From Candidatus Poribacteria bacterium (GTDB taxonomy: Bacteria; Poribacteria; WGA-4E; WGA-3G), in the NCBI GenBank assembly GCA_963663765.2, contig CAXXUA010000005.1, forward strand, positions 672,001 through 736,000: a DNA stretch of 64,000 nucleotides, written 5' to 3'. The notes beneath the pieces are model-generated. The model saw only the letters and a list, made by a program, of their open reading frames with translations. It was not told where the DNA came from and did no database searches. Shown here in pieces: positions 32,360-51,164 of this stretch. How positions within the stretch are numbered: the stretch's first letter is position 1; the number at the start of each line of letters is the position of its first letter. The position numbers and the translations under genes are program-made.

Positions 32360-32717
32360 GATGATATTCCAGTCCTATGAAGACGTCAGTTCCCTCTACT
32401 AAAGGTGTGTAGGTGTTAGTAGCACCTACACTGAACTGGTATAATGAGTATCTCATGTTTTAAACCAAAAATCAAGTTTTTTCTTGACACAAGCACTTAG
32501 CACGACTACATCCCACTACCTAAAGGTAGGGGTTTTGTCGTGATTCTTGATAAGAAACTATGATAAAGTATAGCAAATTTCTTGTATTCGTGTCATCAAT
32601 TATATTGCAAATCAAAAGGAAACATGCGTTATGTTATTTTCTTCATGAAATTTCTTTCATATATTTTCTATCTTATGGTATACTACAAAGCGAAATTAGT
32701 GATTATTGGAGGAAGGA

Positions 32718-33689
32718 ATGAAACCAACGGATAGAAAGTGGGATGGAACGATAACACGTTATCCTGAACCAGCTGTTGAAGTACTTGATTCCCGGTTTAA
32801 TAAGTACAAAATTGGGAATGCAGCCGTAGAAAGACTTTGGACTGGTGCGCGTTGGTCCGAAGGTCCCGTCTGGTTTGGTGATGGTGGTTACCTACTATGG
32901 AGTGACATTCCAAACAACAGAATACTGAAGTGGGAAGAGGCAATTGGGAAAGTATCTGTATTCCGCAAACCCTCTAACTATAGTAACGGACATACAAGAG
33001 ACAGACAAGGAAGACTCATTAGTTGTGAACACGGATCACGAAGCGTCACTCGTACGGAATATGACGGTACAATTACAGTTCTAATGGATGCTTATACTGG
33101 AAAAAGGCTTAACGCACCAAACGATGTCGCAGTCCATACAGATGGTGGTATCTGGTTTACCGATCCAGGTTACGGGATTATGCTCAACTATGAAGGTCAT
33201 ATTGCAGAATTTGAATTACCTACTTCGGTTTACAGACTTAACCCAGAATCCAATGAAGCTACCGTTGTAACTGATGAACTTGAAAAACCCAATGGGATAT
33301 GTTTTTCACCTGATTATAGTAAACTCTATGTTGTGGATACAGGGGTGACCCACAAAGAAGGCACACCAAGAAACATCTATGTCTTTGATGTTGCTAATTG
33401 CGATCACTTAGAGAACAAACAGGTGTTTTGTGATATGGCACCAGGTATTGCAGATGGTATCAGGTGTGATATCGATGGTAATTTATGGGCAAGTGCAGGA
33501 TGGGTAGGAGAGGGTTACGACGGTGTACATATATTCGCTTCGGATGGAACGATGATCGGTAAAATACACTTACCAGAAATCTGTTCTAACCTATGTTTTG
33601 GTGGCGTAAAACGTAATAGACTCTTTATGACTGGTAGCCAATCGCTCTATTCTGTCTATGTGGAAGCACAAGGACTACCGTTATTCTAA
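32718..33689 (+). CDS. SMP-30/gluconolactonase family protein
   Basis: WSEGPVW, LNAPND, PNGICFSPD, ADGIRCD. Confidence 0.93.
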   Translation: MKPTDRKWDGTITRYPEPAVEVLDSRFNKYKIGNAAVERLWTGARWSEGPVWFGDGGYLLWSDIPNNRILKWEEAIGKVSVFRKPSNYSNGHTRDRQGRLISCEHGSRSVTRTEYDGTITVLMDAYTGKRLNAPNDVAVHTDGGIWFTDPGYGIMLNYEGHIAEFELPTSVYRLNPESNEATVVTDELEKPNGICFSPDYSKLYVVDTGVTHKEGTPRNIYVFDVANCDHLENKQVFCDMAPGIADGIRCDIDGNLWASAGWVGEGYDGVHIFASDGTMIGKIHLPEICSNLCFGGVKRNRLFMTGSQSLYSVYVEAQGLPLF

Positions 33690-33712
33690 GTTAGCAGTAA
33701 TTCCTTAGTACA

Positions 33713-34730
33713 ACGAGTTGTGCTAAATAACTATATGTTAATCATTGTTTCACATAAGCATGACGTTTTGCAGGTGTCCTTCATAGTTTGAAACGATCTT
33801 TAGTCCCGTAGGGACGATATGTTTATAGAAATACGCCATAGCACATACTCTTTAGTCCCGACAAATGCCATACGCGCATTTGGCGTTGATTTGGTAGGGA
33901 CGATATGTTTATAGAAATACGCCATAGCACATACTCTTTAGTCCCGACAAATGCCATACGCGCATTTGGCGTTGATTTGGTAGAGACGATATGTTTATAG
34001 AAATACGCCATAGCACATACTCTTTAGTCCCGACAAATGCTATACGCGCATTTGGCGTTGATTTGGTAGGGACGATATGTTTATAGAAATACGACATAGC
34101 ACATACTCTTTAGTCCCGACAAATGCTATACGCGCATTTGGCGTTGATTTGGTAGGGACGATATGTTTATAGAAATACGACATAGCACATACTCTTTAGT
34201 CCCGACAAATGCCATACGCGCATTTGGCGTTGATTTGGTAGCGACGATATGTTTAGAGAAATACGCCATAGCACATACTCTTTAGTCCCGTAGGGACGAT
34301 ATGTTTATAGAAATACGCCATAGCACATACTCTTTAGTCCCGACAAATGCCATACGCGCATTTGGCGTTGATTTGGTAGCGACGATATGTTTAGAGAAAT
34401 ACGCCATAGCACATACTCTTTAGTCCCGACAAATGCCATACGCGCATTTGGCGTTGATTTGGGTAGGGACGATATGTTTAGAGAAATACGCCATAGCACA
34501 TACTCTTTAGTCCCGTAGGGACGATATGTTTATAGAAATACGCCATAGCACATACTCTTTAGTCCCGTAGGGACGATATGTTTATAGAAATACGCCATAG
34601 CACATACTCTTTAGTCCCGACAAATGCCATACGCGCATTTGGCGTTGATTTGGTAGGGACGATATGTGTGCATTATAAACCTAATATATGTAAAAACTTT
34701 GAAAACAATGGGTTAACTAGCACAAGTCGT
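33713..34730. mobile_element. MITE (ACGAGTTGTGCTA TIR) containing a 12-unit REP array (52-bp empty and ~86-bp filled units)
   Basis: Same arms as 36632-37032 and 61297-61573; 8 units carry the 34-nt insert, 4 do not. Confidence 0.88.
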
Positions 34731-34837
34731 TAGTACTGCGAATCTCAGAAATGTGATTTTGTTCAAATTCACAAGATTGTATATCTGGTAAATCGGGGTT
34801 GGCAAACCCTCCTACCATTTATGAGATAGAATGTAGA

Positions 34838-35308
34838 TTAAAGATGCTGCGGTTCCTGATAGGAATAGCTTTGGATGACATCATTCATCAATAGACGTTG
34901 TGCAATTGTCTGTATCATTTCCGAGTTCAAGTCACCATGCAACCAGAACTTTTGACCAGTGCGTACAGCATCGACTCTGGATATACCTATGTCTTTTATC
35001 CCTTTTGCCGTACTATCACCCACTGCATCTGTAACACCAGGTTTGAATTGGACTTCAACAGTCCAATCTGAACTATTATCGTAAACACTGTCAAAAGTGT
35101 AGTTCTGTGTTATTGGATCAGCAAGAAGTTCTGATCCAATTCGGTCAACAGTTTGAGAGTCAAGATCACCTTCAATCCAATAGACCGCTGCAGTTCTGAC
35201 AGATTCCACACCTTGTATTCCAAGGTCAAAAATGTCTTCAACGATACCAAGTCCAATCGTGTCAGGTACATCAGACTTGTAAAATACTTCAACTTTCCAA
35301 TTCTTCAT
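34838..35308 (-). CDS. purS: phosphoribosylformylglycinamidine synthase PurS-like protein with two tandem PurS domains
   Basis: VEVFYKSDVPD..VESVR..LLADPITQ followed by VEVQFKPGVTD..VDAVRTG..LLMNDVIQ. Confidence 0.75.
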   Translation of the reverse strand: MKNWKVEVFYKSDVPDTIGLGIVEDIFDLGIQGVESVRTAAVYWIEGDLDSQTVDRIGSELLADPITQNYTFDSVYDNSSDWTVEVQFKPGVTDAVGDSTAKGIKDIGISRVDAVRTGQKFWLHGDLNSEMIQTIAQRLLMNDVIQSYSYQEPQHL

Positions 35309-35388
35309 AGATGTCTTTCTTATGTTAGTGTAAACGTAGAGATGAAAACTTCAATTGTAGTAACAGATTTTCATGATGGATTTTCAAT

Positions 35389-36225
35389 ATGAATACAAAA
35401 CAGATTCGTATATTAGTATTTGGCGCGCATCCCGATGATTGTGATATAAAAGCTGGTGGCATAGCTGCATTATATGTCAATCAAGGACACCTTGTGAAGT
35501 TCATTTCAGTAACAAACGGTGATGCTGGTCACCATACGATGGGAGGTAGTCCATTAGCTCAAAGAAGAAATGCAGAAGCACAAGCAGCTGCAAAAGTAAT
35601 TGGAATCGCGTATGAACTTTTTGATAATCACGATGGAACGTTGATGCCAACCTTGGAAAATCGTTTACAAGTCATACGCGCTATTCGTGATTTCAAACCA
35701 GATCTGATTATGACCCACCGTCCTAACGACTATCATCCGGATCATCGCTATACATCAATACTTGTACAAGACGCTGCGTATATGGTCACCGTTCCGAATA
35801 TCTGTGCGTTAACGCCACATTTAGAGAAAAATCCGGTGATCGTTTATCTCAGTGACAACTTTCAGAAACCTTATCCTTTTTCACCTGATGTCGTCGTAGC
35901 AATTGATGATGTAATAGAAAAGAAAATAGACATGCTTTATTGTCACGAATCACAGTTTTTTGAATGGCTTCCTTACAACAGCGGTACACTAAAAAACGTA
36001 CCAAACAAACCTGACTCCCGTCGTGAATGGCTTGCAAAAAGAATAAAAAATCGCTTTCATACAATAGCAAAAACGTATCGGGATCGGTTGAAAGAACTAT
36101 ACGGTACGGAACTTGGTAATAACATTCAATATGCTGAGGCATTTGAAGCATGTGAATACGGTTCCTCTCTGACCACAGAAAACTTACCACACTTATTTCC
36201 TTTTTTTCTAAAAAACTCTGAATAA
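35389..36225 (+). CDS. PIG-L/LmbE family deacetylase
   Basis: GAHPDDCD, VTNGDAG, HPDH, HESQ. Confidence 0.93.
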   Translation: MNTKQIRILVFGAHPDDCDIKAGGIAALYVNQGHLVKFISVTNGDAGHHTMGGSPLAQRRNAEAQAAAKVIGIAYELFDNHDGTLMPTLENRLQVIRAIRDFKPDLIMTHRPNDYHPDHRYTSILVQDAAYMVTVPNICALTPHLEKNPVIVYLSDNFQKPYPFSPDVVVAIDDVIEKKIDMLYCHESQFFEWLPYNSGTLKNVPNKPDSRREWLAKRIKNRFHTIAKTYRDRLKELYGTELGNNIQYAEAFEACEYGSSLTTENLPHLFPFFLKNSE

Positions 36226-36233
36226 GGTCAATT

Positions 36234-36427
36234 TATGGTAAATTATGGAATTAATTACACACTTGCACAGGTAGGAGCGACCTCCTGGTCGCGACCGTAT
36301 GGAGACCATGTATCAATACCGTCACGACCAGGAGGTCACTCCTACCAAAGAAAAGAATAGGATACTCACAAGACAGCCAATATGGTAAATTGTAGAAATG
36401 TAATCTAATTTTTTAAATTTCGCCATA
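36234..36427. mobile_element. TA-ended MITE with REP doublet
   Basis: TATGGTAAATT ... AATTTCGCCATA; internal inverted GTAGGAGCGACC pair. Confidence 0.6.
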
Positions 36428-36631
36428 ATTGGGTAATTCGTCCTAAAACACAACCAAATGGACACTATTTTCGTTTTTTGGTAACAATTTAAATGTAGAG
36501 TAAACCCAGTGGTAGCAAAGTTTTACAGGTATTTTCTTGGAAATTAAATAAATATTTTCTGCAAGTGTAACATTTTGTAATTTCTTGTTAAGATGAGAAT
36601 AATCTGTCAGTATTATTAATGTGTATATATA

Positions 36632-37032
36632 ACGAGTTGTGCTAAATAACTATATGTAAATCATTGTTTCACATAAGCATGACGTTTTGCATGTGTCCTT
36701 TATAGTTTGAATCGATCTTCAGTCCCGACAAATGCCATACGGGGAATGCCTTAATGGCATTCATACCGTTGATTTGGCGCATTTGGCGTTGATTTGGTAG
36801 GGACGATATGTTTATAGAAAAACGTCATAGTACATACTCTTTAGTCCCGACAAATGCCATACGGGGAATGCCTTAATGGCATTCATACCCGGGGAATGCC
36901 TTAATGGCATTCATACCGTTGATTTCTTGATTTGGCGCATTTGGCGTTGATTTGGTAGGGACGATATGTGTGCATTATAAACCTAATATATGTAAAAACT
37001 TTGAAAACAATGGGTTAACTGGCACAAGGCGT
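36632..37032. mobile_element. ACGAGTTGTGCTA-family MITE with nested micro-elements
   Basis: Two REP units, filled with A[B] (36727-36796) and A[B[B]] (36849-36954). Confidence 0.88.
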
Positions 37033-37105
37033 TTATATATTTTGTTACGCATCTGATATGTAATATATATTATTACATATCTAATAATATGTGTCAAGTA
37101 TTTTT

Positions 37106-37581
37106 CAGGGATATTCAGTTTTCCTAATATTTGGATTTTTCAAAAGAATAACCCCGCGGTAGGAGCGACCCGGGGAATGCCAAAAGGCATTCATACCCGA
37201 CGAATGCCATAGGCGCATTCGGCGTTGATTTGGGGGAATGCCTAAATGGCATTCATACCGTTGATTTCTTGATTTGGTGCTTTGTAAGCGCGCTCTTGGG
37301 ACTTGATGTGCCAGCGCGCTTACAAAGCACGCCTACCAGGGTAGGTTAGAGATAATTACCTAATTTATTTTTTAATCTTCATTAAGGCATTCTCCGCCTA
37401 CCAGGGTGGGTTAGATAGAATTATCTAATTTATCTAACTTCATTAGGGACGATATGTTTATAAGTTGGGGTTCGTACATACATATCGTTCCTACAGGACT
37501 AAAGGCATGGACAAGATGGCAACACATAAAATTAACGTTATAGCAATAATTCATCAAAATACCTCAAACTAAATAACCCTG
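37106..37581. mobile_element. chimeric ISAs1-type MITE with REPs and nested micro-elements
   Basis: CAGGGATATTCAGTTTT / AAACTAAATAACCCTG ends, no TSD; B[A,B] nest at 37172-37276. Confidence 0.7.
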
Positions 37582-37586
37582 CCATC

Positions 37587-40040
37587 ATGATGTTTTTCTT
37601 GTCATTTCTTTGGATATATGGTATTTTATTAAAATATATTTCCCCAAACGAAAAGGACAATCCAGTGAGTCTGCCAAAAACGCTAATAAGCATTCTCTTT
37701 TTTTTCAGTCTACTTCCAATAATTGCTACAGCCAAATCGCCAAAAGCGCGTACACATCTCCCCACAAATTCGGTAGCAATGAGCGATGATGCATTAGCCA
37801 CTTTCTTCAACCCCGCAGGATTAGGCACTCACCGCGCTTTGAACTTATACTATCTAAGAACATACCGCAGCGACACCCCCGGCGATGATGCCTTCTTTAT
37901 CTCCGCTCCAAGTAGTGGATTTGGCATGGAGTTTGTGAACGCACCAAACGACATAGACTTTACACGATACAGTTTGGCTGCCGGACAACATCTCGGAGAT
38001 GCTTTGTACTGGGGAACAAACTATAGTTGGATCAACTCGGATAATGAGTCCTATGATAAGTATAAGGCTATATCTATCGGTTTGATGTACCGTCGCCGCT
38101 ATTTTTCAATCGGAGCGATAGGACGCGACCTTAACCGACCCACACTACTCGATCAAAAGATGCCGCGAATCTACGATATGGGGATTGCACTACGCCCAGG
38201 AACATGGCGTACAACTTTCTCATTTGATGTACGAAAAACGCAAAATGTAAGCGAATTAGACCTGAGTTATGGTCTTGAAATTCGTCCCATTCGTGAATTT
38301 ATACTCCGTGGCACATATAACAGCGATAACAGCTATGACATTCGCTTCGGTATCAACATAGGCAATTTCGGTTTCGGTACAGTCAACGACTTTGATCACG
38401 GTGGGGAATCCAACGCAGGTGTCGGTTACATGCACTTCTCATCCGCATCTATAACAAAACCCATATTTCGTAAACGGCTTTTTCTTGATTTAGGAATGGA
38501 ACAAATCGACGCTGCACTCCGAATTGCCAAATGGGACAATGATATCGCAGGTGCTTTAATCCGATTGGATGGCAGCAGCTACGGGATGGGGCAATTCCAA
38601 GAGATACGGGATGCTATAGTGGAATTCAAGGAAGCAGACAAAATCGTTATGTGTTACATTACTGACTGCTCAACGGGTGACTACATCGTTGCCTCAGCAT
38701 GCGACACAATCTTGATGCATCCGAGTGCTGATCTACGACTGATAGGGTTACGATCCGAACGCTCCTTCTACAAAGGTGCCCTGGACAAACTCGGTATCCA
38801 AGCACATCTTGAACACATCGGTGAATATAAATCTGCGGCAGCAGCATATACGCAAGAAAGCATGGCAGAACCACACCGCGAAAACCAAAATGCACTTCTT
38901 GACGATCTATACGACCAACTTACTACAGAGATCGCGACCACACGCGGCTGGACACCGGGAACTGTGATGAAGTTGATTGATAATGGTCCCTATACCGCAA
39001 AAGAGGCACAAAATGCAAATATTGTTGACGAACTACTTTACGATGATAGTCTGAACGTCATTGCCAGTCAACTCGCAGACACTGAAGTTAACCTGATTAA
39101 GCTCAATGATTATCTAAGAAGCGGATTGTACCCACACGACTGGACGGTGCAAAAACCTAAAATCGCAGTGATTGAAGCAACGGGTATGATGTTAACCGGA
39201 GAAAGTTTTTCTGACTTATTGACTGGAACTTCAGTGATGGGGGCAGATACAATTGCCCGCGCCATCAAGTATACGCGAGAAGATGCATCCATTAAGGCAG
39301 TTGTCTTGCGCATTGATAGCGGAGGCGGATTAGTCGTCGCCGCTGATATAATATGGAACGAACTCATGCGGCTCACAGAGGTAAAACCCCTTGTCGTCTC
39401 TATGGCAGATGTCGCTGCCTCTGGTGGATATTATATCGCCGCGGCTGCGGATGTCATTGTCGCAGAACCCGGGACCATTACAGGATCAATCGGTGTTATC
39501 GGTGGAAAGTATAGTTTCAAAGGATTGTATGAAAAAATTGGCATCAAGAAGGAGATAATGCAACGCGGTGCACACGCAGACTTTTACAGTGATTATAGTG
39601 ATTATCCACCACATGAACAGGAGATCGTTCAGAGACAGATCAAGGAGATTTATGACAATTTTATAACAAAAGTCGCATTGGGAAGAGATCAATTGACGAA
39701 GGAAGAAGTTGATAAAGTCGCACGCGGACGTGTCTGGACAGGACGACAAGCAAAAGAAAATGGATTGGTTGATGTACTCGGTGGGCTTAGCGATGCACTC
39801 TCAATTGCAAAAAAACGCGCAGGTCTGGAAAAACAGGTCGTTCAGGTTGTACGTTTACCAAAACCTACTTGGTTCACACAGTTGTTAGGTAACATTAGAC
39901 TGGTTTCTACCGAGAAATTGGCACCGTTGCCAAACATCTATCAGTTCTTTGGTCAATCAACCAGTCTAAAATTGCTGAATATCATAAAGAAACATAGAAT
40001 CTTTCTATTGATGCCTTATGAAGTATCTGTCGGTTCATAA
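37587..40040 (+). CDS. sppA: signal peptide peptidase SppA with an N-terminal beta-barrel-like extension
   Basis: IGEYKSA, VVLRIDSGGG, AASGGYYIA, GTITGSIGV, GRVWTGRQA; N-terminal ~290 aa beta-rich with FFNPAGLG. True start may be GTG at ~37665. Confidence 0.88.
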   Translation: MMFFLSFLWIYGILLKYISPNEKDNPVSLPKTLISILFFFSLLPIIATAKSPKARTHLPTNSVAMSDDALATFFNPAGLGTHRALNLYYLRTYRSDTPGDDAFFISAPSSGFGMEFVNAPNDIDFTRYSLAAGQHLGDALYWGTNYSWINSDNESYDKYKAISIGLMYRRRYFSIGAIGRDLNRPTLLDQKMPRIYDMGIALRPGTWRTTFSFDVRKTQNVSELDLSYGLEIRPIREFILRGTYNSDNSYDIRFGINIGNFGFGTVNDFDHGGESNAGVGYMHFSSASITKPIFRKRLFLDLGMEQIDAALRIAKWDNDIAGALIRLDGSSYGMGQFQEIRDAIVEFKEADKIVMCYITDCSTGDYIVASACDTILMHPSADLRLIGLRSERSFYKGALDKLGIQAHLEHIGEYKSAAAAYTQESMAEPHRENQNALLDDLYDQLTTEIATTRGWTPGTVMKLIDNGPYTAKEAQNANIVDELLYDDSLNVIASQLADTEVNLIKLNDYLRSGLYPHDWTVQKPKIAVIEATGMMLTGESFSDLLTGTSVMGADTIARAIKYTREDASIKAVVLRIDSGGGLVVAADIIWNELMRLTEVKPLVVSMADVAASGGYYIAAAADVIVAEPGTITGSIGVIGGKYSFKGLYEKIGIKKEIMQRGAHADFYSDYSDYPPHEQEIVQRQIKEIYDNFITKVALGRDQLTKEEVDKVARGRVWTGRQAKENGLVDVLGGLSDALSIAKKRAGLEKQVVQVVRLPKPTWFTQLLGNIRLVSTEKLAPLPNIYQFFGQSTSLKLLNIIKKHRIFLLMPYEVSVGS

Positions 40041-40045
40041 ACTTC

Positions 40046-40711
40046 ATGTCCGAAAATCGGGGAAGGCGTATAATGATGCATGCCGATGAATTTGCTAATG
40101 CCAGAAAAAAAATGGTTCGCAACCAAATCGCAAACCGGGATATACGAAATCCTGATATACTGTCTGTTATGGAGAAAATCCAAAGACATCTATTTGTAAC
40201 TCATGAATATCAAGAATGGGCATATCAAGATAGACCGCTGCCAATAGACAAAGGGCAAACAATATCGCAACCCTACATCGTTGCATTAATGACTGATTTA
40301 CTCAAACTGTCACAGAATTCCAAAGTGCTTGAAATCGGAACTGGGTGTGGCTATCAGACTGCAGTTTTAGCTGAACTTGCCAAGGAAGTATATTCTGTAG
40401 AGATATTACCCGAACTCGCAGAAAGTGCTAAAGAAAAATTAGAAGAACTCAACTATGCAAACGTCCATTTTAAAGAGGGTAACGGTTATTATGGGTGGAT
40501 TGAAAATGCACCTTATGACGCGATTCTCGTAACGGCTGCACCCGCAAAAATACCGTATAGACTTACACAACAACTCGCTGACGATGGACGGATGGTCATC
40601 CCTGTCGGTTCTGACATACAACAACTCTTCTTAATAAAAAAATGTTCAGGTAAAGTAGAAACCACAACAATAACAGGTGTCAGTTTCGTTCCGATGACAG
40701 GCACACCGTAG
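40046..40711 (+). CDS. pcm: protein-L-isoaspartate O-methyltransferase
   Basis: GQTISQPYIVA, VLEIGTGCGYQTA, APYDAILVTAA, FVPM. Confidence 0.96.
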   Translation: MSENRGRRIMMHADEFANARKKMVRNQIANRDIRNPDILSVMEKIQRHLFVTHEYQEWAYQDRPLPIDKGQTISQPYIVALMTDLLKLSQNSKVLEIGTGCGYQTAVLAELAKEVYSVEILPELAESAKEKLEELNYANVHFKEGNGYYGWIENAPYDAILVTAAPAKIPYRLTQQLADDGRMVIPVGSDIQQLFLIKKCSGKVETTTITGVSFVPMTGTP

Positions 40712-40719
40712 GAGAAAGC

Positions 40720-41676
40720 ATGAAAAAATATAGACTGAGATGTAGTTATATACTGTTCATAATCCTTGTCCTCACCCCGTCAACTTTTGCAGCATACAAT
40801 GACATCGGTGTTGGGGCGCGTCCATTGGGTCTTGGCGGTGCATTTGTCGCACTCGCTGATGATACCAACGCTACGCATTATAACGCCGCAGGCTTAGCCT
40901 ATATTGATAAAATACAGTTCGGTGCTACTTATGCACAACGATTTAACGGACTCGTTAACTATAACACCATTGGTGGCATAATCCCTATTGGAGGATTGGG
41001 AACTATCGGGGCTAATATCGGTTGGCTTACGGAAGACTCTGAGGTATATGAGGAGCGAACAATACGGATTTCTTACGGACGCACCCTCATAAGACAGTTG
41101 GGACTTGGACTTAACCTGAAACTATTTGGCACTACGTTTGATGAAGCAAACGAGTTTGTCATAGAGAATCCGTATTTTGCTCAAACATCAAGTTCTGCTG
41201 TTTCACTTGATCTTGGTCTTTTGGCAAAGCCGATCAACAGTCTCAGCATCGGTGTAGCGGTGGAGAATATACTCCCAGTAGACGTAAGTATTTCAGAGAC
41301 AGAAACAGACACAGTCCCAATGAACATCCGAGCAGGGATTGTATACAACCTTGAATCCATTGCAGAAATGAGCACACAGGGGTCAGCAATCACGAACTTA
41401 TTGAAAGGTACTATAGTTGCCGTTGAAGTGGTGTCCCGCGATAGTGAAATATATACACGTTTAGGCTTAGAGATGTGGATGAACAATGCCATCGGAGTTC
41501 GCGGTGGGTATGGAATGAATAATAGTGGTAATCCAGCGACAACCCTAAGCCTTGGTGGTAGTGCCAAGATACCCATCAGCAGTACAACATTCCAACTGGA
41601 TTATGGCTTCCAGTTATTAACTGGTGACTTGCAGGACAACACAACACAACGATTTTCAGTTAATCTCTTGTTCTGA
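40720..41676 (+). CDS. PorV/PorQ (UPF0164)-like outer-membrane beta-barrel protein
   Basis: GVGARPLGLGGAFVALADD...HYNAAGLA; C-terminal F. Confidence 0.8.
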   Translation: MKKYRLRCSYILFIILVLTPSTFAAYNDIGVGARPLGLGGAFVALADDTNATHYNAAGLAYIDKIQFGATYAQRFNGLVNYNTIGGIIPIGGLGTIGANIGWLTEDSEVYEERTIRISYGRTLIRQLGLGLNLKLFGTTFDEANEFVIENPYFAQTSSSAVSLDLGLLAKPINSLSIGVAVENILPVDVSISETETDTVPMNIRAGIVYNLESIAEMSTQGSAITNLLKGTIVAVEVVSRDSEIYTRLGLEMWMNNAIGVRGGYGMNNSGNPATTLSLGGSAKIPISSTTFQLDYGFQLLTGDLQDNTTQRFSVNLLF

Positions 41677-41756
41677 TGGCGGAATAAATCGTTATACGTG
41701 TTGCATGAAACCTCATTGTGCATTATAGGAAATGAAACTGTTCTACCAACCCACGA

Positions 41757-42989
41757 ATGCAAAAATCCAGACTCCTCCTGCTGTTCTTAACCCTATTTTT
41801 TGTAATGCTTGGTTTTGGTATAATAATTCCAAACCTCGCTTATTACGCAGAAGATATCGGTGCAACGCCAACTAAAATCGCTCTATTGCTATCTATCTAT
41901 TCTGGCATGCAACTGCTGTTTGCACCCATCTGGGGTAGATTGTCAGACAGATATGGTAGGAAACCAGCGATTCTGTTAGGACTACTTGGGAATGCTCTTG
42001 CTTTAGCAGCTTTCGGTTTAGCAAAAGATTACACTTCGCTTTTCATAGCACGTAGTGCTGCAGGTATCGCTTCGGCAGCTGTGTTACCGAGTGTGATGGC
42101 GTATGTCGCTGATGTTACCAACACAGAGGAACGCGGCAAAGGTATGGGGTTGATGGGAGCAGCCATGGGACTCGGGTTCATCCTCGGACCAGGTATTGGT
42201 GGGATAATGGGGCGACATGATTTACCATTCTTTGTCGCAGGAGGATTGTCATTCTTAACCTTCCTCTTTGTGTTATCACTTCTACCAGAATCACTACAGA
42301 AAGATGCCGAGGCAGCACATCACGCATGGGTTTCTCCACGCCAACTAATCCAGCAAACAACATTGAAATCCCCGCTTATCCCACTTTTTCTTGTTGCCTT
42401 TTTTACCACATTCAGTTTCGCAGGAGTGGAGGCGACGTTTCCACTGTTCATCAAAAAAGGTTGGGGGTATGAACAGCAGCAGATGGGATGGATGTTTATG
42501 GTCATGGGAGTGATAGTTGTACCACTTCAAGGTGGATTTCTCGGTATGTTAATAAACAAGCTTGGAGAGCGGCGTATTATCATCACAGGGCTGTTATTGA
42601 ATGCTCTCGGTATGGTGCTTTTGCTCTATGCGTTTTCATTTTGGACGTTAACAGTGTATCTAACAATTACTGGTATCGGTAATCAATTGATACGTCCGAC
42701 AAATACATCATGGATTTCTAAACAGACCCGAATTGGGCAAGGTGCAGCTATCGGTATAATGGATGCATTCTTAAGTTTGGGACGAGTCTTAGGACCACTT
42801 CTTGGAGGTTGGTTATATGAAACATCTGTCCATCCTGGATTTGTCAAGACGATGTTCGGAGTAATTCTTGACGGTAATTTCTATGGTAATAATGCCTATT
42901 CTTATGCAGTTCTGGCAGTGATCTTGGTGATTGCAACTGTATGTCTGTATGTCCCTTTGCGGCGGGTTGAACAAGGAACATCCACATAG
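41757..42989 (+). CDS. MFS transporter (TetA-like DHA1)
   Basis: WGRLSDRYGRKP motif A, GFILGPGIGG motif C. Confidence 0.93.
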   Translation: MQKSRLLLLFLTLFFVMLGFGIIIPNLAYYAEDIGATPTKIALLLSIYSGMQLLFAPIWGRLSDRYGRKPAILLGLLGNALALAAFGLAKDYTSLFIARSAAGIASAAVLPSVMAYVADVTNTEERGKGMGLMGAAMGLGFILGPGIGGIMGRHDLPFFVAGGLSFLTFLFVLSLLPESLQKDAEAAHHAWVSPRQLIQQTTLKSPLIPLFLVAFFTTFSFAGVEATFPLFIKKGWGYEQQQMGWMFMVMGVIVVPLQGGFLGMLINKLGERRIIITGLLLNALGMVLLLYAFSFWTLTVYLTITGIGNQLIRPTNTSWISKQTRIGQGAAIGIMDAFLSLGRVLGPLLGGWLYETSVHPGFVKTMFGVILDGNFYGNNAYSYAVLAVILVIATVCLYVPLRRVEQGTST

Positions 42990-43315
42990 GTGTCAACTTA
43001 AGAAAATATTGTTTGCATTTTCTCTTGTGGAAGGGGTTTTCAACCCCGATTTGAGCGGAAATGCACTAAAAAATCGGGGTTGAAAACCCCTCCCACAAGA
43101 GGTTAAATCCTTAAGTTGACACCTATGGGGTTGAAAACCCCTCCCACAAGAGGTTAAATCCTTAAGTTAACACCTAATGAAGTTTGACAATCAAAATCGA
43201 TAGTTGAATTCGTAGGGGTTGGGTTCCCCAACCCCTTTGGTTTTTGAGTTTGCGTAGATCATGTGTGGCAACCACGCCCCTACGAATACACAACTTGAAC
43301 GTCAAAACTCATTAG
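42985..43315. mobile_element. composite of two MITE types with REP cargo
   Basis: CATAGGTGTCAACTTAAG TIR pair (42985-43127) plus CTAATGA(A/G)(G/T)TTTGAC pair; flanked by a 19-20 bp direct repeat. Confidence 0.7.
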
Positions 43316-43363
43316 GTTGAACAAGGAACATCCATAACGGAGCATGAAGTTCAATTTAAAACC

Positions 43364-46300
43364 TCAGTATGGACTCACACTGTTCTTGTCTGTTGACAAA
43401 GGTGGTAGATGGTGTTTCACGCGGCGTGTGTTGTATTTCAGTTGGTATTGTTGATGTTCTTTGTCATCTGGATACTGTTCAGCCTTTGGATATGGATATG
43501 CAGACATGCCGTGGAAAGGCAAAGGTTTAACCGTTTGTGATGTTAACGTGTTTATATCTCCATCTTTGTCCCACCCATCACTGTATAGGATGAAGTCCCG
43601 AATCCAACCCTGTTTGAGTGTGGGAAGTCGTGAAGCGTCAAATTCAACCGTGATTTCATCTCCAGCATTGAGAATGACATACATGTCATCAACCTTTTGC
43701 AGTAATGGATTGACATCTCCGAAACGTGTGTAAAATCCTTCAAGATCGCGCCATAGTTTGTCTTTTGTAACCTTTTGATAGTCAAATAGATGTGGTGCAT
43801 GTGAGTTTGGACGGTACATTTGAGAAAAACCACGGTAGTGTAGGTCAGCACTATCGGGATTCAACTCTGTGATTTGCATCGGTACATCCTGTTTGCCCAC
43901 AGTGAAAAATGCGGCATCCCAATATATTTGCATATATGTTTCAATCCGAACGTGTCTGTCATCAGACAAAAACTTATCTGTCAGATCAATAACAATAGTT
44001 TTGTTTTTTCCTGCGGGAATGCCAATCATATCAATGACGGTTTTCCACTTATCATCTTTGTCCTTCACTGAAACTGAAGGGAACTGCGGATTTATTCCCG
44101 GATTTTGTGATAGTGCTACATTGATACTGGTATCAGTAGGAAAAATCCAACCGTTGAGGTAAAGTATCACAGGTGCTTTGTCAGGAATATCGCCAAGATC
44201 AAGGCCAAGGACAATAGCATGCTTATCCACAACCCCTTGGTAGGGACCTGGCGCATGTTCAATAGCGTATTGATAATCCACTTTTTGTAAGGCATCAGAG
44301 ATGTCATTACCGAGATGGTCTGTTGCAGAAGTTGGGTATCGTTTTTGAGCCACTCCATATATCTTGAAATCAGCAAACGGTGGAGGAGAGTACTGTTCGT
44401 TGACGAAAATATCGGTGTCGGTAGGATGGTCAACTGCTATTAGTTTTACCATATCAAAATATGCTGTTTCCCACAGCTCCTCAGTAATCTGAATAGAATA
44501 CTTGCCGTCTTTTGGTTTCATTTGGGATGCGGATATTCGGATGAAATCCCTTGACTCATCAGGGGCAACAAACCCCATAGATGTGATCAAACCGAGTGGG
44601 GCGCGCCACAGTAGGTCGGTGACAAATTGGTAGTTTTCTCCGTCATAGACATATAGAAACGGACATGACCCTTTCAGTATCTGTTTCTCCTGAATACGTT
44701 GTTTTGCCTTCGGTTCTATTACGTTCTGTGGAACACCGTTTGTCCACACAACACGTACAACATCTGCTGAGTCATGTTGTCCTAATCCGAAATGTGCTAC
44801 CTGTTGTGATGAATACTGCAATTGATAAAGATCACTCACTTTTACCTCAAGTTTTGACCCAATTCCATTCCTATTCACTTTGTTATTGCCAGTTGTGATT
44901 CCTTCTAATTGTATCTGTATCCAGTTGTTCAGATTACCACCGTTGTTCTGGAGTGCGTGTAGTTGTCCGTTGTTGACATAGAATAGGTCTAAATCCCCGT
45001 CGTTGTCGTAATCCGCAACGGCACCTGCTGTGCCGTTTTTCATCTGTGCATCAATTTTTATGATCTCACTGGTATCCGAGAATCTTCCCGTACCGTCGTT
45101 ACGAAATAGGTATAATCCTTGTTTGTTGATGATGATTATGTCCAAAAATCCATCATTATCATAGTCAAAAATTTTTAATATCGTGGAGGAGTCGTAACCT
45201 CTGCTTTCAAGCTGCTCGCTTGAACGTGTGTCGGGGAGAAAAGTACCGTCACCCCTATTACGGAATAGGTCTATACCGGATGCTGTGGCAAAAATCAGGT
45301 CTATGTTGCTATCATTGTCATAATCCGCTGAAGCAACTGCAGAATAGGGTATCCTTTGATAGATTCCTGTTTCGGTTGTCATCGCACGTAGTTTCCCTTG
45401 ACGTAGGTTATCGTATAATGTGCATCCTGTTCCCTTATGTATTGCCAATATATCAATATCACCGTCATCGTCAAAGTCCGCAGCGATAGCATCTTTGTGG
45501 GGCTGCTGAGACTGCAGGTTTTCCTTTTTCAACACAAAAGTTTGTTCGGTTACATCAAGGAAGGTGCCATCTCCGTTATTGCGATACATTGACATGCCAG
45601 ATTGTCCAGAAAAAAGATCAAGGTCACCATCGTGGTCATAATCAATAGGCAGCATGAAAGAAGTATCATCCGTTGGTTGTTCATGTTGAATTAGGGTAGT
45701 TGCTACCCATTGCTGGTTAGCATCTGTGCAGAGATAAGTAATTCCGTTTTGCGTCTGTATAATGAAATCTTGTGTGCCATTTTTGTCCAAATCCGCAAAG
45801 GCAACGGTGTGTGGTATTGCAAAAAGTTGCCTTGCTTTCTCCTGAAAACTCTTGACTGGTGTGTACTTTCCATCATCATGTTCAAGGAGTATCCCCGTTG
45901 TTGTAAAAATGTCAACGTTACCGTCATTGTTGTAGTCAAGTAATGAAACGGTCATATTATCTACTGAGGCACTTCGTATATCAGATAGACCGAGTTGTTC
46001 GGTGCTGTCTATAAATTCTACGTCAATTGGTGGGGTGTGTTTTGCGTTTAAACGTGCTTTGAATCCGTGCCGAAACGCTTCTATCGGATGTCCAAGTATA
46101 TCGGTCACCAGTTCACCGATTCCTTGTTGATAACGTGGACTTGCGCGATGCAAGTTCTCAAATATGCGTATATTTCGCGAGGCAATATTAAGATCATTTT
46201 GCTTTATAGCGTGAATTCCTTGTGTGAGATACGCTAACTTTTCTGGGTCGGTATCTCCTAATAGAATCGTTAGTTCCTGACAATGTTTTTCTGCTGTTTG

Positions 46301-46891
46301 AAGTTGTCCTTGACCAAGTAAAGCTTGTGCTAACTTCAATAGGATTACGATGTTTACGGGTGAACGGCTATAGAGTGCTTGTAAGTGTTGAACTGCTTGC
46401 TGTTGTGCGTCTGTATTGTTCCGTTGTCCGAGGTAGTGGCGGACGAGTTTGTATCGGAATTCCAAGTTGTCGGGTGATAGCCGTACTGCCTCCTTCATTG
46501 CTTCTACCGCTTGTTCGGTTTGCCCTTTTAGCAGATATACCTCAGACATTATGAAATGCAGCTGACTGTTCATGGGTGCGACATTTATGCCGCGCTTTAC
46601 CCATTCTTCAGCGGTGTCCGCTTGCTGTAATCGAATGTGTGCTACGGTAATGTTGCCGTAACCAATTGCCTCATCAGGAAGTAGATCAACAAGTGCAGTA
46701 AATTCTGTGAGTGCTTTTATGGGTTGTGATTCTTCAAGGTATGCTAATCCCAAGTTTTGATGCCGAATTGCTTCTCTGATAGTTATATCAGTGTCTGTTT
46801 CTTGTGTGATTGCATTAAGCAGAATGAAGAAAAAAAACGTGAATATGAGGAGATACAAGCAGTTTTTGGGTTGGAATAAACGGGAAAGCAT
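43364..46891 (-). CDS. TPR + FG-GAP/VCBS + ASPIC/UnbV (CRTAC1-like) protein
   Basis: N-terminal TPRs, repeated DYDNDGDLD motifs, NRNGIGSK..HFGLG..VVWTNG, GSCPFLY C-terminal domain. Confidence 0.88.
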   Translation of the reverse strand: MLSRLFQPKNCLYLLIFTFFFFILLNAITQETDTDITIREAIRHQNLGLAYLEESQPIKALTEFTALVDLLPDEAIGYGNITVAHIRLQQADTAEEWVKRGINVAPMNSQLHFIMSEVYLLKGQTEQAVEAMKEAVRLSPDNLEFRYKLVRHYLGQRNNTDAQQQAVQHLQALYSRSPVNIVILLKLAQALLGQGQLQTAEKHCQELTILLGDTDPEKLAYLTQGIHAIKQNDLNIASRNIRIFENLHRASPRYQQGIGELVTDILGHPIEAFRHGFKARLNAKHTPPIDVEFIDSTEQLGLSDIRSASVDNMTVSLLDYNNDGNVDIFTTTGILLEHDDGKYTPVKSFQEKARQLFAIPHTVAFADLDKNGTQDFIIQTQNGITYLCTDANQQWVATTLIQHEQPTDDTSFMLPIDYDHDGDLDLFSGQSGMSMYRNNGDGTFLDVTEQTFVLKKENLQSQQPHKDAIAADFDDDGDIDILAIHKGTGCTLYDNLRQGKLRAMTTETGIYQRIPYSAVASADYDNDSNIDLIFATASGIDLFRNRGDGTFLPDTRSSEQLESRGYDSSTILKIFDYDNDGFLDIIIINKQGLYLFRNDGTGRFSDTSEIIKIDAQMKNGTAGAVADYDNDGDLDLFYVNNGQLHALQNNGGNLNNWIQIQLEGITTGNNKVNRNGIGSKLEVKVSDLYQLQYSSQQVAHFGLGQHDSADVVRVVWTNGVPQNVIEPKAKQRIQEKQILKGSCPFLYVYDGENYQFVTDLLWRAPLGLITSMGFVAPDESRDFIRISASQMKPKDGKYSIQITEELWETAYFDMVKLIAVDHPTDTDIFVNEQYSPPPFADFKIYGVAQKRYPTSATDHLGNDISDALQKVDYQYAIEHAPGPYQGVVDKHAIVLGLDLGDIPDKAPVILYLNGWIFPTDTSINVALSQNPGINPQFPSVSVKDKDDKWKTVIDMIGIPAGKNKTIVIDLTDKFLSDDRHVRIETYMQIYWDAAFFTVGKQDVPMQITELNPDSADLHYRGFSQMYRPNSHAPHLFDYQKVTKDKLWRDLEGFYTRFGDVNPLLQKVDDMYVILNAGDEITVEFDASRLPTLKQGWIRDFILYSDGWDKDGDINTLTSQTVKPLPFHGMSAYPYPKAEQYPDDKEHQQYQLKYNTRRVKHHLPPLSTDKNSVSPY

Positions 46892-46897
46892 TGATGC

Positions 46898-47158
46898 TTA
46901 TGCCTCTGGTTCTTTAAAGGATTCAGCGGATTTCAGAATGGCTTGTTTGAGTGCTTTTAGTCGAACTCCCAGTGAATCTTCCACTTGTTTTAGATGGAGC
47001 AGCCACGATTCTTTGGAGTCACCTTCTTCAGTACCAAAACTGTTTGTCATTGACAGTCGGAGGTATTTTAGACGTTCCGATTGCAAAATTTTCATTTGGT
47101 CATCGTAGTCTTCAATGCCTGATTCTAACAGGGTTGCGAGTTCTCGTATCTGTTCCAT
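46898..47158 (-). CDS. hypothetical coiled-coil protein
   Basis: 86-aa ORF ending 7 nt before the next gene, same strand. Confidence 0.65.
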   Translation of the reverse strand: MEQIRELATLLESGIEDYDDQMKILQSERLKYLRLSMTNSFGTEEGDSKESWLLHLKQVEDSLGVRLKALKQAILKSAESFKEPEA

Positions 47159-47259
47159 AGTGTAATCCTAATTCTGGTAATTACTGTTTTTGTCACGACC
47201 AAGAGGTTGCTCCTACCAATAATGTCTTAAAAAGTTTCTATAGTTCAGTTTAGTTTTAG

Positions 47260-47297
47260 GTTCTTGTAGGAGGTTTGTGATGTCCTCCTACAAGAAC
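47260..47297. terminator. hairpin downstream of 47316-47909 (terminator or REP)
   Basis: GTTCTTGTAGGAGG-loop-CCTCCTACAAGAAC. Confidence 0.55.
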
Positions 47298-47315
47298 TTG
47301 TGACAGAGTTGTCGT

Positions 47316-47909
47316 TTATTTTTGACTTTTTAATGAGCCCCATGTGGTAGTGATTTTTCCGTTCGGTTCAACAGGTGTTGGCGGATCACCGATTGTTTTT
47401 CGGAAATAAACATCATCGGCAACATCGTTGGGACCTGCCCAAATCCAGAATGCGCTTGAATCCGGATCTGTCAGGGATGCACTTGCTCCAGTGCCCCAGG
47501 CACCTTGGCCGAATGGGGCGAGTTCGATCGCGTTTTCCCAACCACTATCGTCAAAATTAATAGTTTCCCATCCGTCGTCTCGATCTGCAATTAGCACGCC
47601 AGCATTTGACTTCCATGTGTCATCTGATGGTATATAGGTACCGTCGTCAAGAATGACATCAATCAGTGCACCGCCGATCCCTGTTGCACCGGGTTCCAAG
47701 TCGTGGACATAAACTGCAATGACAGCATAACCATCGGGCATCTCAAATTCTGTGACGGAGGCGTTCTGCCAATTATCTCCCGTAGCAACCTGTTCACCGT
47801 TGATGAATCCGACCCAAGAGTTATCGCCATTAATACGAAGTTTTGCTGCCCATAGCGTTGATGCGGTGAGACATAAGACAAAAATTGCGAAAACCAAAGA
47901 TTTTTTCAT
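47316..47909 (-). CDS. secreted beta-sandwich protein with TTWG tail
   Basis: Signal peptide; GDNSWVGFING, GWETINFDDSGW; ends KITTTWGSLKSQK. Confidence 0.75.
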   Translation of the reverse strand: MKKSLVFAIFVLCLTASTLWAAKLRINGDNSWVGFINGEQVATGDNWQNASVTEFEMPDGYAVIAVYVHDLEPGATGIGGALIDVILDDGTYIPSDDTWKSNAGVLIADRDDGWETINFDDSGWENAIELAPFGQGAWGTGASASLTDPDSSAFWIWAGPNDVADDVYFRKTIGDPPTPVEPNGKITTTWGSLKSQK

Positions 47910-47975
47910 GTTATTCTCCTTATTTATAAATATAATAGATAATGTAGTAGGTTACATTGCCTACCACTTAGAAAA

Positions 47976-48623
47976 TTATTGAATGTTTCTTTTGATACTT
48001 GCCCACGAAGTCGTGAGCTTACCTTTTGGTTCAACCGGATATTGACCGATAGTATAGCGGAAGTAGATATCGTCTTCCACGTTGTTTGGACCACACCAGA
48101 CCCAATTTGCTGTACAATCTGGATTATTAAAAACTGTTTTCATATTATCTGTGCCACCTGCCCAAGCACCACCACCAAATTTTTGATAAAGTTGGAGTTC
48201 GGTCTCCCAATCACTATCATCGAAATCAATTTTTTCCCAACCATCGTTTCGATCAGCAAGAAGTATGCCAGAATCACATCGCCAACCGTCTTCGCCAGTG
48301 GCGATGTAGTTAGGTTCGTCATCAAGCACGATATCAGCGAGGAAACCACCAACACCTTGACCGCCAGGTTCGGCATCATGAACATAAACTGCGATCACCG
48401 CAAAACCGTTGTCCAGAGTGAACTCGCTTGCAGTGGGTTGATCCCAGTGAATATGTTCCGCTACCTTTTCTCCGTTTACGTAAGCGACCCAAGTGTTATC
48501 TCCGCTAATACGCAATGTTCCTTTTTTCGGTTCGGCGTTTGAGTTATGTATGAGAATTAAGCTACATAATAAAAATATGGCAGTTAAACATGCCATTATA
48601 CGAGTGTTCATAAATACCTCCAT
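47976..48623 (-). CDS. paralogous secreted beta-sandwich protein with TSWA tail
   Basis: Aligns with the neighbour throughout; ends KLTTSWASIKRNIQ. Confidence 0.75.
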   Translation of the reverse strand: MEVFMNTRIMACLTAIFLLCSLILIHNSNAEPKKGTLRISGDNTWVAYVNGEKVAEHIHWDQPTASEFTLDNGFAVIAVYVHDAEPGGQGVGGFLADIVLDDEPNYIATGEDGWRCDSGILLADRNDGWEKIDFDDSDWETELQLYQKFGGGAWAGGTDNMKTVFNNPDCTANWVWCGPNNVEDDIYFRYTIGQYPVEPKGKLTTSWASIKRNIQ

Positions 48624-48762
48624 TTTATTTACTTAAGGGGACAATTCAAGATAGTCCACCGATTTATATTGTATATGGATATACGTTTGATTTCATCTTC
48701 AAGATAAAGCAACGGTTTTGTAGTGAGAAAGCCGTTGCTAATTTAACAATTCAGTTTTAAAT

Positions 48763-48884
48763 CAGGACTTACGAAAAAAAGGTAGGCGTGCTTTGTAAGC
48801 GCGCTGGAAACCCATAAAAACGCTGATAATTGCATCATTTTCATCATAATTCTTGATTATATCAAGAAAACTGCGTAAGTCCTG
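48763..48884. mobile_element. MITE, CAGGACTTACG family
   Basis: 122 bp, near-identical to 26782-26903. Confidence 0.88.
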
Positions 48885-49661
48885 TTAAAATAGTGATGGA
48901 AAGTGTCTATATGGGTCCGCTGGTTCACGGAACAGAATTTTTTGTCGTTCAGTTAATTCTATATCCTTTGGTTGTGCGACACGTCTCGAAGTCCACGCCA
49001 CGTGTGAAACACAGTATTTATATAATAGTGAACGCCTCTGATGTCTTCCGTTCCATGCGGCAGTACCGTGTGTGAGTGCTTCACTGAATAGGATTGCAGA
49101 ACCTGCTGCTGCATTTGGGATGATGACACATGGTGCTTTTTCGGGTGCGGCAGCTATCTCCTGTGGGAGTTTGTAATTGCTTTTGTGGCTACCCGGAATA
49201 CAGCAAAATCCTCCGTGTTCTGGTCCTGTATCAGCGAGGTTCCATGCTACGACGACAAATCCGTTGTGTATTTCGTTATCTCTAAAAGGGAAATACTCCC
49301 CGGGCTGTGCTTTTGATGTCGGTGATGTTGCACCGTAGTCTGCGTGTAGTCCACCCCTTCGCATTCCGTTGCTCATATACATGCCGTAAATACGGTCAAG
49401 TCGAAAACAGTCTCCTAATCGGAAACGTAGAATATCCATGGTTTTTGGATGATCCAACAGTGAGCAAAATGATTTTCCCCATTGCAAAAAACCTGATCCG
49501 TCAGGTGCACTTCCAAATCTTTGCACTTTTCCGGGTGTAGGGAGGTTTTGTTCATCAATTCGTTCATTGAGTTCAGCTACTTCATCCGAATCTAAGACAT
49601 TTTCAACAACTAAATAACCTTGTACGTCAAAGAGGTATTGTTGTATCTGTAAGTCACTCAT
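48885..49661 (-). CDS. PhyH-family dioxygenase
   Basis: FDVQGYLVV, LHAD, PGSHKSNY, AGSAILFSEALTHG. Confidence 0.9.
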   Translation of the reverse strand: MSDLQIQQYLFDVQGYLVVENVLDSDEVAELNERIDEQNLPTPGKVQRFGSAPDGSGFLQWGKSFCSLLDHPKTMDILRFRLGDCFRLDRIYGMYMSNGMRRGGLHADYGATSPTSKAQPGEYFPFRDNEIHNGFVVVAWNLADTGPEHGGFCCIPGSHKSNYKLPQEIAAAPEKAPCVIIPNAAAGSAILFSEALTHGTAAWNGRHQRRSLLYKYCVSHVAWTSRRVAQPKDIELTERQKILFREPADPYRHFPSLF

Positions 49662-49704
49662 AGATATGTTATCCTAATTATATAGAACTCGGAGCAGTAT
49701 TGTG

Positions 49705-50625: not shown

Positions 50626-50687
50626 TATTGATAATTTGCAACACACAAAAATTTGAATATCGCACAAAAAATGAATTTGTTTTGTTC

Positions 50688-50870: not shown

Positions 50871-50906
50871 AGTAAACTCCTTAATTTAAAAGTCATTTAA
50901 ACCTTA

Positions 50907-51098: not shown

Positions 51099-51164
51099 CC
51101 TTATAGTCGCGTCTTTCAAATAGTATAACATTCAGTTTTCTTCTCGTCAATAAAATAATTTGGT

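Follow-up and report, generated by a model that had tools for sequence, protein, structure and literature searches.

A 64,000-nucleotide stretch of a Candidatus Poribacteria genome (GenBank assembly GCA_963663765.2, contig CAXXUA010000005.1, positions 672,001 to 736,000; hereafter the window) carries three types of short hairpin unit, named A, B and C, which share a tail and sit within other repeats and within one another. They form a real, well-defined repeat family that is confined to one genus of Candidatus Poribacteria, and their behaviour is that of some of the smallest mobile DNA known. Each unit is a module separable from its carrier: the same flanking haplotypes exist with and without them, and related species differ in which sites are filled. 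In our judgement there is an even chance that A, B and C represent one family of non-coding, non-autonomous insertion modules that enter the dinucleotide C^G (the caret marking the junction) in hairpin-forming DNA and are moved by a protein acting in trans. Nested mobile repeats of very small size were known before, and the Poribacteria are a new phylum for them.

Anatomy of the units

Unit A (34 nt) consists of GACAAATGCC-ATAC-GCGCATTTGG followed by the tail CGTTGATTTG, and unit B (35-36 nt) of GGGGAATGCC-loop-GGCATTCATAC followed by the same tail. A preliminary description of the window had already dissected A and B into a stem core and a tail at these lengths, and reading of the places it cited bore this out. 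To these we add a third type, unit C, with the stem CAGAAGC/GCTTCTG and the tail of A and B. All three share a common plan of 3 nt, a 7-bp hairpin, a spacer of 1-4 nt and the tail CGTTGATTT(G). The window has 14 copies of CGTTGATTTG, where shuffles predict 0.25, and the units give the expected hairpins when folded as single strands (z -1.9 to -4.7). Throughout the genome that holds the window (G000; 6.35 Mb, 41% G+C, 15 contigs, 97.8% complete), a perfect stem of at least 6 bp lies within 5 nt upstream of 509 of 869 tails, compared with 44 of 3000 random places.

The stems fall into families that differ by paired changes, namely GAATGCC/GGCATTC (290 copies), GAATGCT/AGCATTC (19), GAATACC/GGTATTC (16), CAAATGC/GCATTTG (65), CGAATGC/GCATTCG (11) and CAGAAGC/GCTTCTG (14), and the tail is constant across all of them. 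Because the stems change in pairs while the tail stays identical, the hairpin shape and the tail are the conserved features. Most B stems are perfect (329 of 407), and one copy of A in the window (A', 37199-37232) has the compensated stem CGAATGC/GCATTCG. The preliminary description had denied any terminal inverted repeats (TIRs). This holds for the unit termini, but the hairpin arms do form a 7-bp subterminal inverted repeat. Tails are often octamer runs, CGTTGATTT(CTTGATTT)n G, even where there is a single hairpin, and the general pattern can be written as (C-hairpin-C)m followed by (TTGATTT+1 nt)n. The spacer before the tail varies by species in L127, L132 and L135, all of the same genus, where it reads CATAG-, CACAT- and CACAG-CGTTGATTT; in one spacer variant the tail is enclosed by CACAT..ATGTG as a second hairpin.

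Copies in the window

The copies in the window (Table 1) sit in several carriers, of which c1 is a GTAG-tagged element resembling the repetitive extragenic palindromes (REPs), c2 is a hairpin carrier with the site GTCCC^GTAGGGAC, c3 is the site GGGGTTTTCAACCCC^GATTTT and c4 is a type of REP; GTAG is borne by c1, c2 and c4. The clearest single case is the 70-nt composite at 36727-36796, which is made up of nucleotides 1-14 of A, a 36-nt B and nucleotides 15-34 of A, so that the insertion lies exactly between CATAC and GCGC, as had been proposed; it folds into nested hairpins at -13.8 kcal/mol (z -3.0). Further copies of A were recovered at GTCCC^GTAGGGAC in a tandem array, whose 12 units are near-identical apart from the presence of A; empty sites lie in the array as well.

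The larger composites were also found. The 106-nt composite is present, one base to the right of the numbers that the preliminary description implied. Within it, at 36862-36917, a 28-nt module CGGGG..CATACC occurs twice (Tandem Repeats Finder: period 28, 2 copies, 100% match), followed by CGTTGATTT-CTTGATTT-G. The 105-nt composite has A' where A had been placed, and it is chimeric, with REP c4 on its left flank (GGTAGGAGCGACC) and carrier c1 on its right (GGTGCTTTGTAAGC). The B pair at 50946 and the inverted B in a REP at 20232 are both present as well; the carrier of the former is REP-like, and its empty paralogue reads ..GTAG gcgc GCTGGAAACC.

Table 1. Units and composites in the window, and mobile-element genes of G000 considered as possible partners. 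Positions are those of the window unless a contig of G000 is given.
Feature	Position	Strand	Details
A with B in its loop	36727-36796	+	70 nt; B = 36741-36776 (36 nt), at CATAC^GCGC; carrier GTCCC^GTAGGGAC
A with B-in-B pair in its loop	36849-36954	+	106 nt
B1 hairpin + CC + A' + B2 with double tail	37172-37276	+	105 nt; A' = 37199-37232
Tandem array of 52-nt c2 units	33808-34667	+	A in 8 of 12 units (filled units 86 nt), the rest empty
A copies in c2 array, first part	33860-33893, 33946-33979, 34032-34065, 34118-34151	+	
A copies in c2 array, second part	34204-34237, 34342-34375, 34428-34461, 34619-34652	+	
Empty c2 sites in array	33807^33808, about 34288, 34510, 34562	+	
B-in-B, both loops AAAA	50946-51015	+	70 nt; TTTGTAGGC^GCGCTGG of REP-like carrier
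Unit B in loop of GTAG-tagged REP	20232-20267	-	GGTAGGAGCGACCTC^GGTCTCGAC on + strand
Unit C	5236-5269	-	GGGGTTTTCAACCCC^GATTTT; fold -10 kcal/mol, z -4.7
IS200/IS605-family element	15513-17041	-	tnpA 16622-17041 (139 aa), tnpB 15513-16625 (370 aa)
RAYT-like gene 1	G000 C4:621.2-621.9k (L017/L140)		among dozens of GTAGGAGCGA REPs
RAYT-like gene 2	G000 C10:25.0-25.28k (L018)		appears frameshifted, cut by contig end, beside GGTAGGCGTGCTTTGTAAGCGCGC array
IS607-family element	G000 C5:772.1-773.9k and 4 other copies (L165-L169)		GG at both junctions in all five

Insertion at C^G

Throughout G000, CGTTGATTTG is present in 462 copies and CGTTGATTTC in 242. When hairpins (A, B, C) and tail heptamers (t) are read as tokens across this genome, 594 composites result: Bt (236), Btt (76), At (74), BBtt (64), B (27), A (24), Ct (16), Bttt (14), BBttt (9), Btttt (8), BAtBtt (5), BBBtt (4) and BBt (3), with rarer forms making up the remainder. 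For 94 of 385 distinct flank pairs, G000 also holds a unit-free paralogue with the same 14+14-nt flanks. The four main contexts are GGTAGGC^GTGCTTTGTAAGCGCGC of c1 for unit B (157 filled, 533 empty), GTCCC^GTAGGGAC of c2 for unit A (132 filled, 566 empty), GGGGTTTTCAACCCC^GATTTT of c3 for unit C (16 filled, 105 empty) and CATAC^GCGC in the loop of A for unit B (63 filled, 73 empty); the c4 REP adds 883 empty sites. Counted with exact flanks, the empty paralogues number 466 at GGTAGGC^GT, 538 at GTCCC^GT, 98 at AACCCC^GA and 73 at CATAC^GC. In each of these contexts, a filled site is the empty one with a unit G...TTGATTTG added between C and G, without duplication save for a 1-nt (G) ambiguity of the junction, so a 1-nt duplication may be present. 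The earlier claim that there is no target-site duplication (TSD) is therefore upheld for anything longer than 1 nt.

The exact C^G junction without duplication recurs in at least ten unrelated contexts. Grouping the 538 tailed composites by their flanks gave 61 clusters, of which 51 have C as the left base and 31 have GG after the tail; C also precedes 536 of 627 B hairpins. The preference for C^G that had been proposed from the window is seen genome-wide. Orientation is strict, with 276 forward and 0 inverted insertions at the palindromic CG. Many of the targets belong to hairpins, either as loops (in c2, in A and in REPs) or, in c3, as the foot, and most of them lie in other repeats, including GTAG-tagged REPs, MITEs (miniature transposable elements with inverted repeats) and other units. 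Unit A is almost confined to c2, and unit C is confined to c3.

Units as separable modules

Haplotypes defined by 60 nt of flank were found both filled and empty at c2 (16), in the A loop (8), at c1 (3) and at c3 (2). Occupancy of one and the same carrier ranges across species from 0 to more than half. For example, the 26-mer across the junction of A and c2 occurs 128 times in G000, 120 times in G055, 30 times in G022 and 23 times in G018, and is absent from G045 and G016, the nearest relatives of G000 (87-90% identity over the two flanking stretches compared). These two genomes hold 163 and 36 empty c2 sites, respectively, and no A-filled junction, both assemblies being fragmented. Because the nearest relatives hold empty c2 sites and no A-filled ones, the unit is no fixed component of its carrier; the preliminary description had treated A and B as units in their own right, and in this respect it was correct.

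Several chimeric flank pairs occur across G000, such as a left flank from c4 with a right flank from c1, which suggests ectopic recombination through B units. Jointly with REPs and MITEs, the units break short-read assemblies of Poribacteria and drive rearrangements, as the chimeric flanks indicate. Short-read contigs from four public runs, covering 32500-52400 of the window, end at every repeat cluster (33741, 34702, 36260, 37517, 43012 and others). The contig joints in these four Logan runs are cross-repeat artefacts and are uninformative on empty alleles.

Longer forms were seen as well. MITE-like forms of 174-824 nt have an extended B stem (GGGGAATGCC..TGAAGATTAAT..) and a B tail as their termini, for example at G000 C4:1092.2-1092.8k and, on the minus strand, C5 782.4-783.2k; the interior of these "long B" forms consists of c1 REP arrays without an open reading frame (ORF). 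In addition, an insertion sequence (IS) of 1.72 kb (TIR CCTACACTCCGCAG.., 516-aa transposase, 6 copies) has one copy in the TTAAT loop of a B unit, at G000 C15:316.4-318.1k.

Distribution

When 185,579 species genomes were scanned for a 20-mer of unit B, 91 stretches were returned. Of the 80 named loci among them, 79 belong to metagenome-assembled genomes of Candidatus or uncultured Poribacteria, and the remaining one is labelled "uncultured bacterium". Within the same genus, 23 of 24 sampled genomes have the 20-mer; in three other families of the order, 0 of 16 genomes have it. We also counted the tail, as CGTTGATTT followed by G or C, in 176 genomes of the phylum, 40 within the genus and 136 outside it. 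It is enriched in this one genus only, where genomes hold 46 to 704 tails (more than 150 in 22 of the 40), and none of the 136 outside genomes exceeds 132. Across the species of the genus, the tail is strongly conserved.

A blastn search of the plasmid collection was negative, the A and B 20-mers had 0 exact matches in viral contigs, and nothing in Rfam reached the gathering score; a sub-threshold Rfam match to MIR841 was set aside as noise. We found no published description of such elements in Poribacteria in the repeat and transposase literature, supplementary tables being outside this search. The preliminary description had not recognised the units as a described element, and for Poribacteria this holds in print, although their kind is known from the small dispersed repeats (SDRs) of Nostocaceae. 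The reading that the genome is that of a Nostoc-type cyanobacterium and the units its SDRs was considered and dropped, the B-bearing loci being Poribacteria.

A proposed mover acting in trans

If the units are moved in trans, a module would be cut out or copied and then joined into single-stranded, hairpin-forming DNA by a protein that reads the hairpin shape and the tail. An HUH-type reaction, whether by a REP-associated tyrosine transposase (RAYT) or an IS200-like enzyme, would be the best fit to the anatomy, because there are no TIRs and no TSD and a hairpin stands beside a fixed flank. A few dozen founding insertions would have come first; most copies would then have multiplied as passengers of REPs and MITEs and by recombination between copies, and the tail runs would have grown later by slippage. 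HUH genes are present in G000, which counts in favour of this scheme: its Y1_Tnp matches are two RAYT-like genes and the four tnpA genes of a single IS200/IS605-family IS, which is present in three full copies and an interrupted one. The units have no TSD longer than 1 nt and mostly a C on their left, traits that may or may not place them with IS200/IS605 derivatives: the motif is only 1-2 nt, and B units inserted in B units depart from it. An HUH chemistry would fit the anatomy, but some of the evidence goes against it.

Several observations weigh against insertion at C^G by an enzyme acting in trans, and the first of these concern the junctions themselves. In carriers c4, c5, c6 and c8 the unit end is ragged (..TTGATTT, +G or +C) and the empty paralogues differ by 1-2 nt; either the 3' end is ragged, or the filled copies descend from variant sites. 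The B-in-B composites are not exact C^G insertions. Their junctions always read CATACC-C-[GGGG..TTGATTT]-C-TTGATTTG, with CATACCCGGGGAATG on the left 108 times against 1 with a single C, and with TTGATTTCTTGATTT on the right 191 times against 0 for TTGATTTGTTGATTT or TTGATTTGGTTGATTT, the forms that exact insertion would leave. The lengths add up, as the preliminary description had pointed out, yet one G is replaced by C, and the CC...C junction requires this change in sequence. Single-rule models of B-in-B formation (a unit E+G, C+E or E+C, or a 1-nt duplication) fail to give both the C^G contexts and CC..C, and neither Campbell-type integration of a circle nor template switching gives both. 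Tails are at least as numerous as hairpins in 77 of 80 BB composites, and the two hairpins of a pair are unlike in 33 of 50, with 28 different pairs among the 50. These tail counts and unlike hairpins indicate that hairpin and tail arrive together and that the pairs are not plain tandem duplications. One possibility is that the invariant junction goes back to a founder event and was spread by conversion.

A second group of observations concerns the independence of the copies. Nearly all lie inside REP or MITE carriers and are thus not independent events: both flanks are unique in only 73 of the 594 composites, and most of these 73 are still recognisable carriers. Because nearly every copy sits within another repeat, independent events would number tens and not hundreds, and much of the copy number can come from amplification and recombination of the carriers rather than from transposition of the units. 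Orthologous empty sites were not obtained, the intergenic DNA of the two nearest relatives being unalignable, and two insertions in unique contexts gave only repeat matches in five relatives.

The third group comes from the search for an enzyme. The ends of the resident IS200/IS605-family IS, TTAACACTATTCCG.. (TTAACAC..) and ..GGGTACTATGAC, are unrelated to the units. The preliminary description had suggested looking for a RAYT/HUH or other recombinase gene flanked by A or B; no RAYT or HUH gene flanked by A, B or C was found. Of 10 RAYT loci from 9 genomes, 9 have GTAGGAGCGA (GTAG) REPs on their flanks, with unit tails absent or at least 500 nt away. A RAYT query had no match in 11 of the 40 genomes of the genus, and 6 of these 11 exceed 150 tails, one of them a single-contig genome that has 264. 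Units stand on both sides of 31 ORFs, none of which is HUH-like on inspection or by its paralogues, and the only multi-copy case among the unit-flanked ORFs is an ordinary TIR-bearing IS within a B loop. Neither the 31 flanked ORFs nor the ORF families enriched near units at 110 loci in other genomes include a recombinase; what they hold is sulfatases and similar genes. No long element in which B-type ends enclose a gene was found in G000. Among other enzyme profiles searched in G000, RVT_1 gave no match where control genomes matched, DEDD_Tnp_IS110 gave no match, and Y2_Tnp gave none, but its control was equally silent. The Resolvase matches belong to a five-copy IS607-family IS of 1.78 kb with a 202-aa serine-recombinase TnpA. 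Unlike the GG at its junctions, the unit targets have a single G (GGTAGGC^GTGC), and its ends are unrelated to the units. Neither the resident IS605-family element nor the resident IS607-family element has termini related to the units.

Orientation belongs with these points. Transposition of the IS200/IS605 type is expected to give a strand bias. Relative to local GC skew, the units showed no bias over 512 clusters (Fisher p = 0.37), a crude comparison, as the skew is noisy in G000; relative to neighbouring genes, 162 are co-oriented and 159 opposed, again without bias. Of the earlier proposal that the units are mobile and moved in trans, the separability of the modules is supported, whereas a cognate enzyme did not turn up and the orientation is unbiased (p = 0.37).

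Alternative explanations

A more specific form of trans mobilization is that the units represent an as yet undescribed class of micro-transposon, in which the 34-36-nt hairpin with its 10-nt tail is the whole substrate and is cut and joined at C^G in extruded hairpins by a protein unlike the known transposase partners, or by a RAYT acting far outside its REP. We put this forward tentatively, as a possibility that falls short of likely. If it is true, the units would be the smallest defined mobile DNA and a second independent case after the cyanobacterial SDRs, and the chemistry would have left its direct footprint in the CC..C junction of self-insertion.

The main rival to insertion by an enzyme is that a handful of rare illegitimate events put a hairpin-and-tail module into several REP or MITE families and that everything else reflects amplification of filled carriers, with recombination and gene conversion among carriers and units; empty sites would then have been converted to filled ones and back, and a single B-in-B founder form would have spread. 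Such a history is doubtful in our view, and unlikely, though several observations would suit it. The carriers are abundant and homologous, as the counts for c1 (533 empty, 157 filled), c2 (566 and 132) and the c4 REP (883 empty) attest; A occurs nearly only in c2 and C only in c3; the chimeric flanks show recombination through units; and the searches of G000 and of loci in the genus yielded no enzyme. It accounts for the B-in-B junction, whose invariance and inexactness suit one founder, but not for the repeated exact C^G junctions, since at least ten unrelated contexts share both this junction and the unit ends, which is unlikely for random illegitimate events. Conversion between units would also have only 25-36 nt of homology to work with, the inner and outer hairpins of B-in-B pairs are of many types (28 pairs among 50), and unlike stem families keep the same ends and tail.

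It is improbable that the units are primarily host-useful sites, structural or regulatory (bound by nucleoid proteins, topoisomerase or RNA-processing factors, or marking transcript ends), kept by selection with their spread secondary. Compensatory changes maintain the hairpin, and species throughout the genus strongly conserve the tail, as might be expected of such sites; a passage of PMC3733652 credits REPs and bacterial interspersed mosaic elements (BIMEs) elsewhere with roles of this sort. However, the units show no preferred orientation relative to genes (162 vs 159), are fewest between convergent genes (57 of 504 clusters), vary 15-fold in copy number among species of one genus, nest within each other and within other selfish repeats, and have no Rfam match.

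Finally, spread through RNA, with a transcribed unit copied by a reverse transcriptase into nicked hairpin loops and the octamer tail arising from slippage in priming, appears very improbable: the variable 3' tail runs (Bt 236, Btt 76, Bttt 14, Btttt 8) recall target-primed retroelements, but RVT_1 has no match in the 97.8%-complete G000 where controls matched, stem mismatches show no excess of G-T (11) over A-C (7), there is no orientation bias relative to transcription, and few of the copies listed are 5'-truncated.

How DNA of a few dozen bases spreads in bacterial genomes has been an open question since REPs and the cyanobacterial SDRs were described. The family offers a clean handle on it, with defined ends, a target dinucleotide, strict orientation and hundreds of matched empty and filled sites, and the 15-fold range in copy number over 40 sequenced species would allow an association search for the enzyme. 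That the host is uncultured is no bar, as the system can be rebuilt from oligonucleotides and a few recombinant proteins; an enzyme, if found, would provide a minimal hairpin-guided DNA insertion system.

Relation to known systems

The units differ from classical MITEs in lacking terminal inverted repeats and target-site duplication, their inverted repeat being a subterminal hairpin. In the variable number of internal modules they resemble the pneumococcal BOX elements (boxA-(boxB)n-boxC) and the enterobacterial BIME mosaics; for BOX and BIME modules, insertion into one another at a fixed dinucleotide is not known. IS200/IS605 elements lack TIRs and TSD, have a subterminal hairpin with a cut about 10 nt 3' of it, and insert by a short fixed motif in single-stranded DNA. 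The units appear alike in having no TIR, no TSD longer than 1 nt, a hairpin with the presumed cut about 10 nt 3' and a short motif at the junction, but unlike in that they have one hairpin, no separate left and right ends and no visible replication-strand bias, and at 34-36 nt they are far below known IS200/IS605 derivatives in size.

GTAG-tagged REP families are described in a passage of PMC3733652, and G000 also has canonical GTAG-tagged REPs beside its RAYT-like genes. With REPs, BIMEs and REPINs (REP doublets forming hairpins), the units share short GC-rich hairpins, a one-sided unpaired tag, hundreds of copies, mosaic clusters and the lack of TIRs and TSD. They depart from the REP/REPIN-RAYT systems in their tag, which is the 10-nt 3' tail and not GTAG or CGTC, and in flanking no RAYT gene. 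Unlike REPINs, they are single hairpins rather than inverted pairs; they also nest among themselves, and the phosphodiester at which they enter REPs is defined.

The closest known system is that of the Nostocaceae SDRs (SDR1-8), with which the Poribacteria units were set side by side by description rather than by sequence. The SDRs, treated by Elhai and colleagues in 2008, are reportedly 21-27 nt long, have a common fold and are nested in their own copies, and an RNA route is said to have been proposed for them. Both systems consist of very short, non-coding dispersed repeats, some with a compensated hairpin, that are precisely inserted into other repeats, and in both mobility is deduced and no enzyme is known. 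According to passages in the literature, SDR5 sits between the third and fourth base of HIP1 (PMC4390886), and SDRs are reported only within Nostocaceae (PMC5861425). The Poribacteria units are unlike them in their length of 34-36 nt, their common 10-nt tail, a target of C^G rather than HIP1 and their lineage. The SDR traits that we examined, self-nesting and precise insertion into other repeats, are both found in the Poribacteria units.

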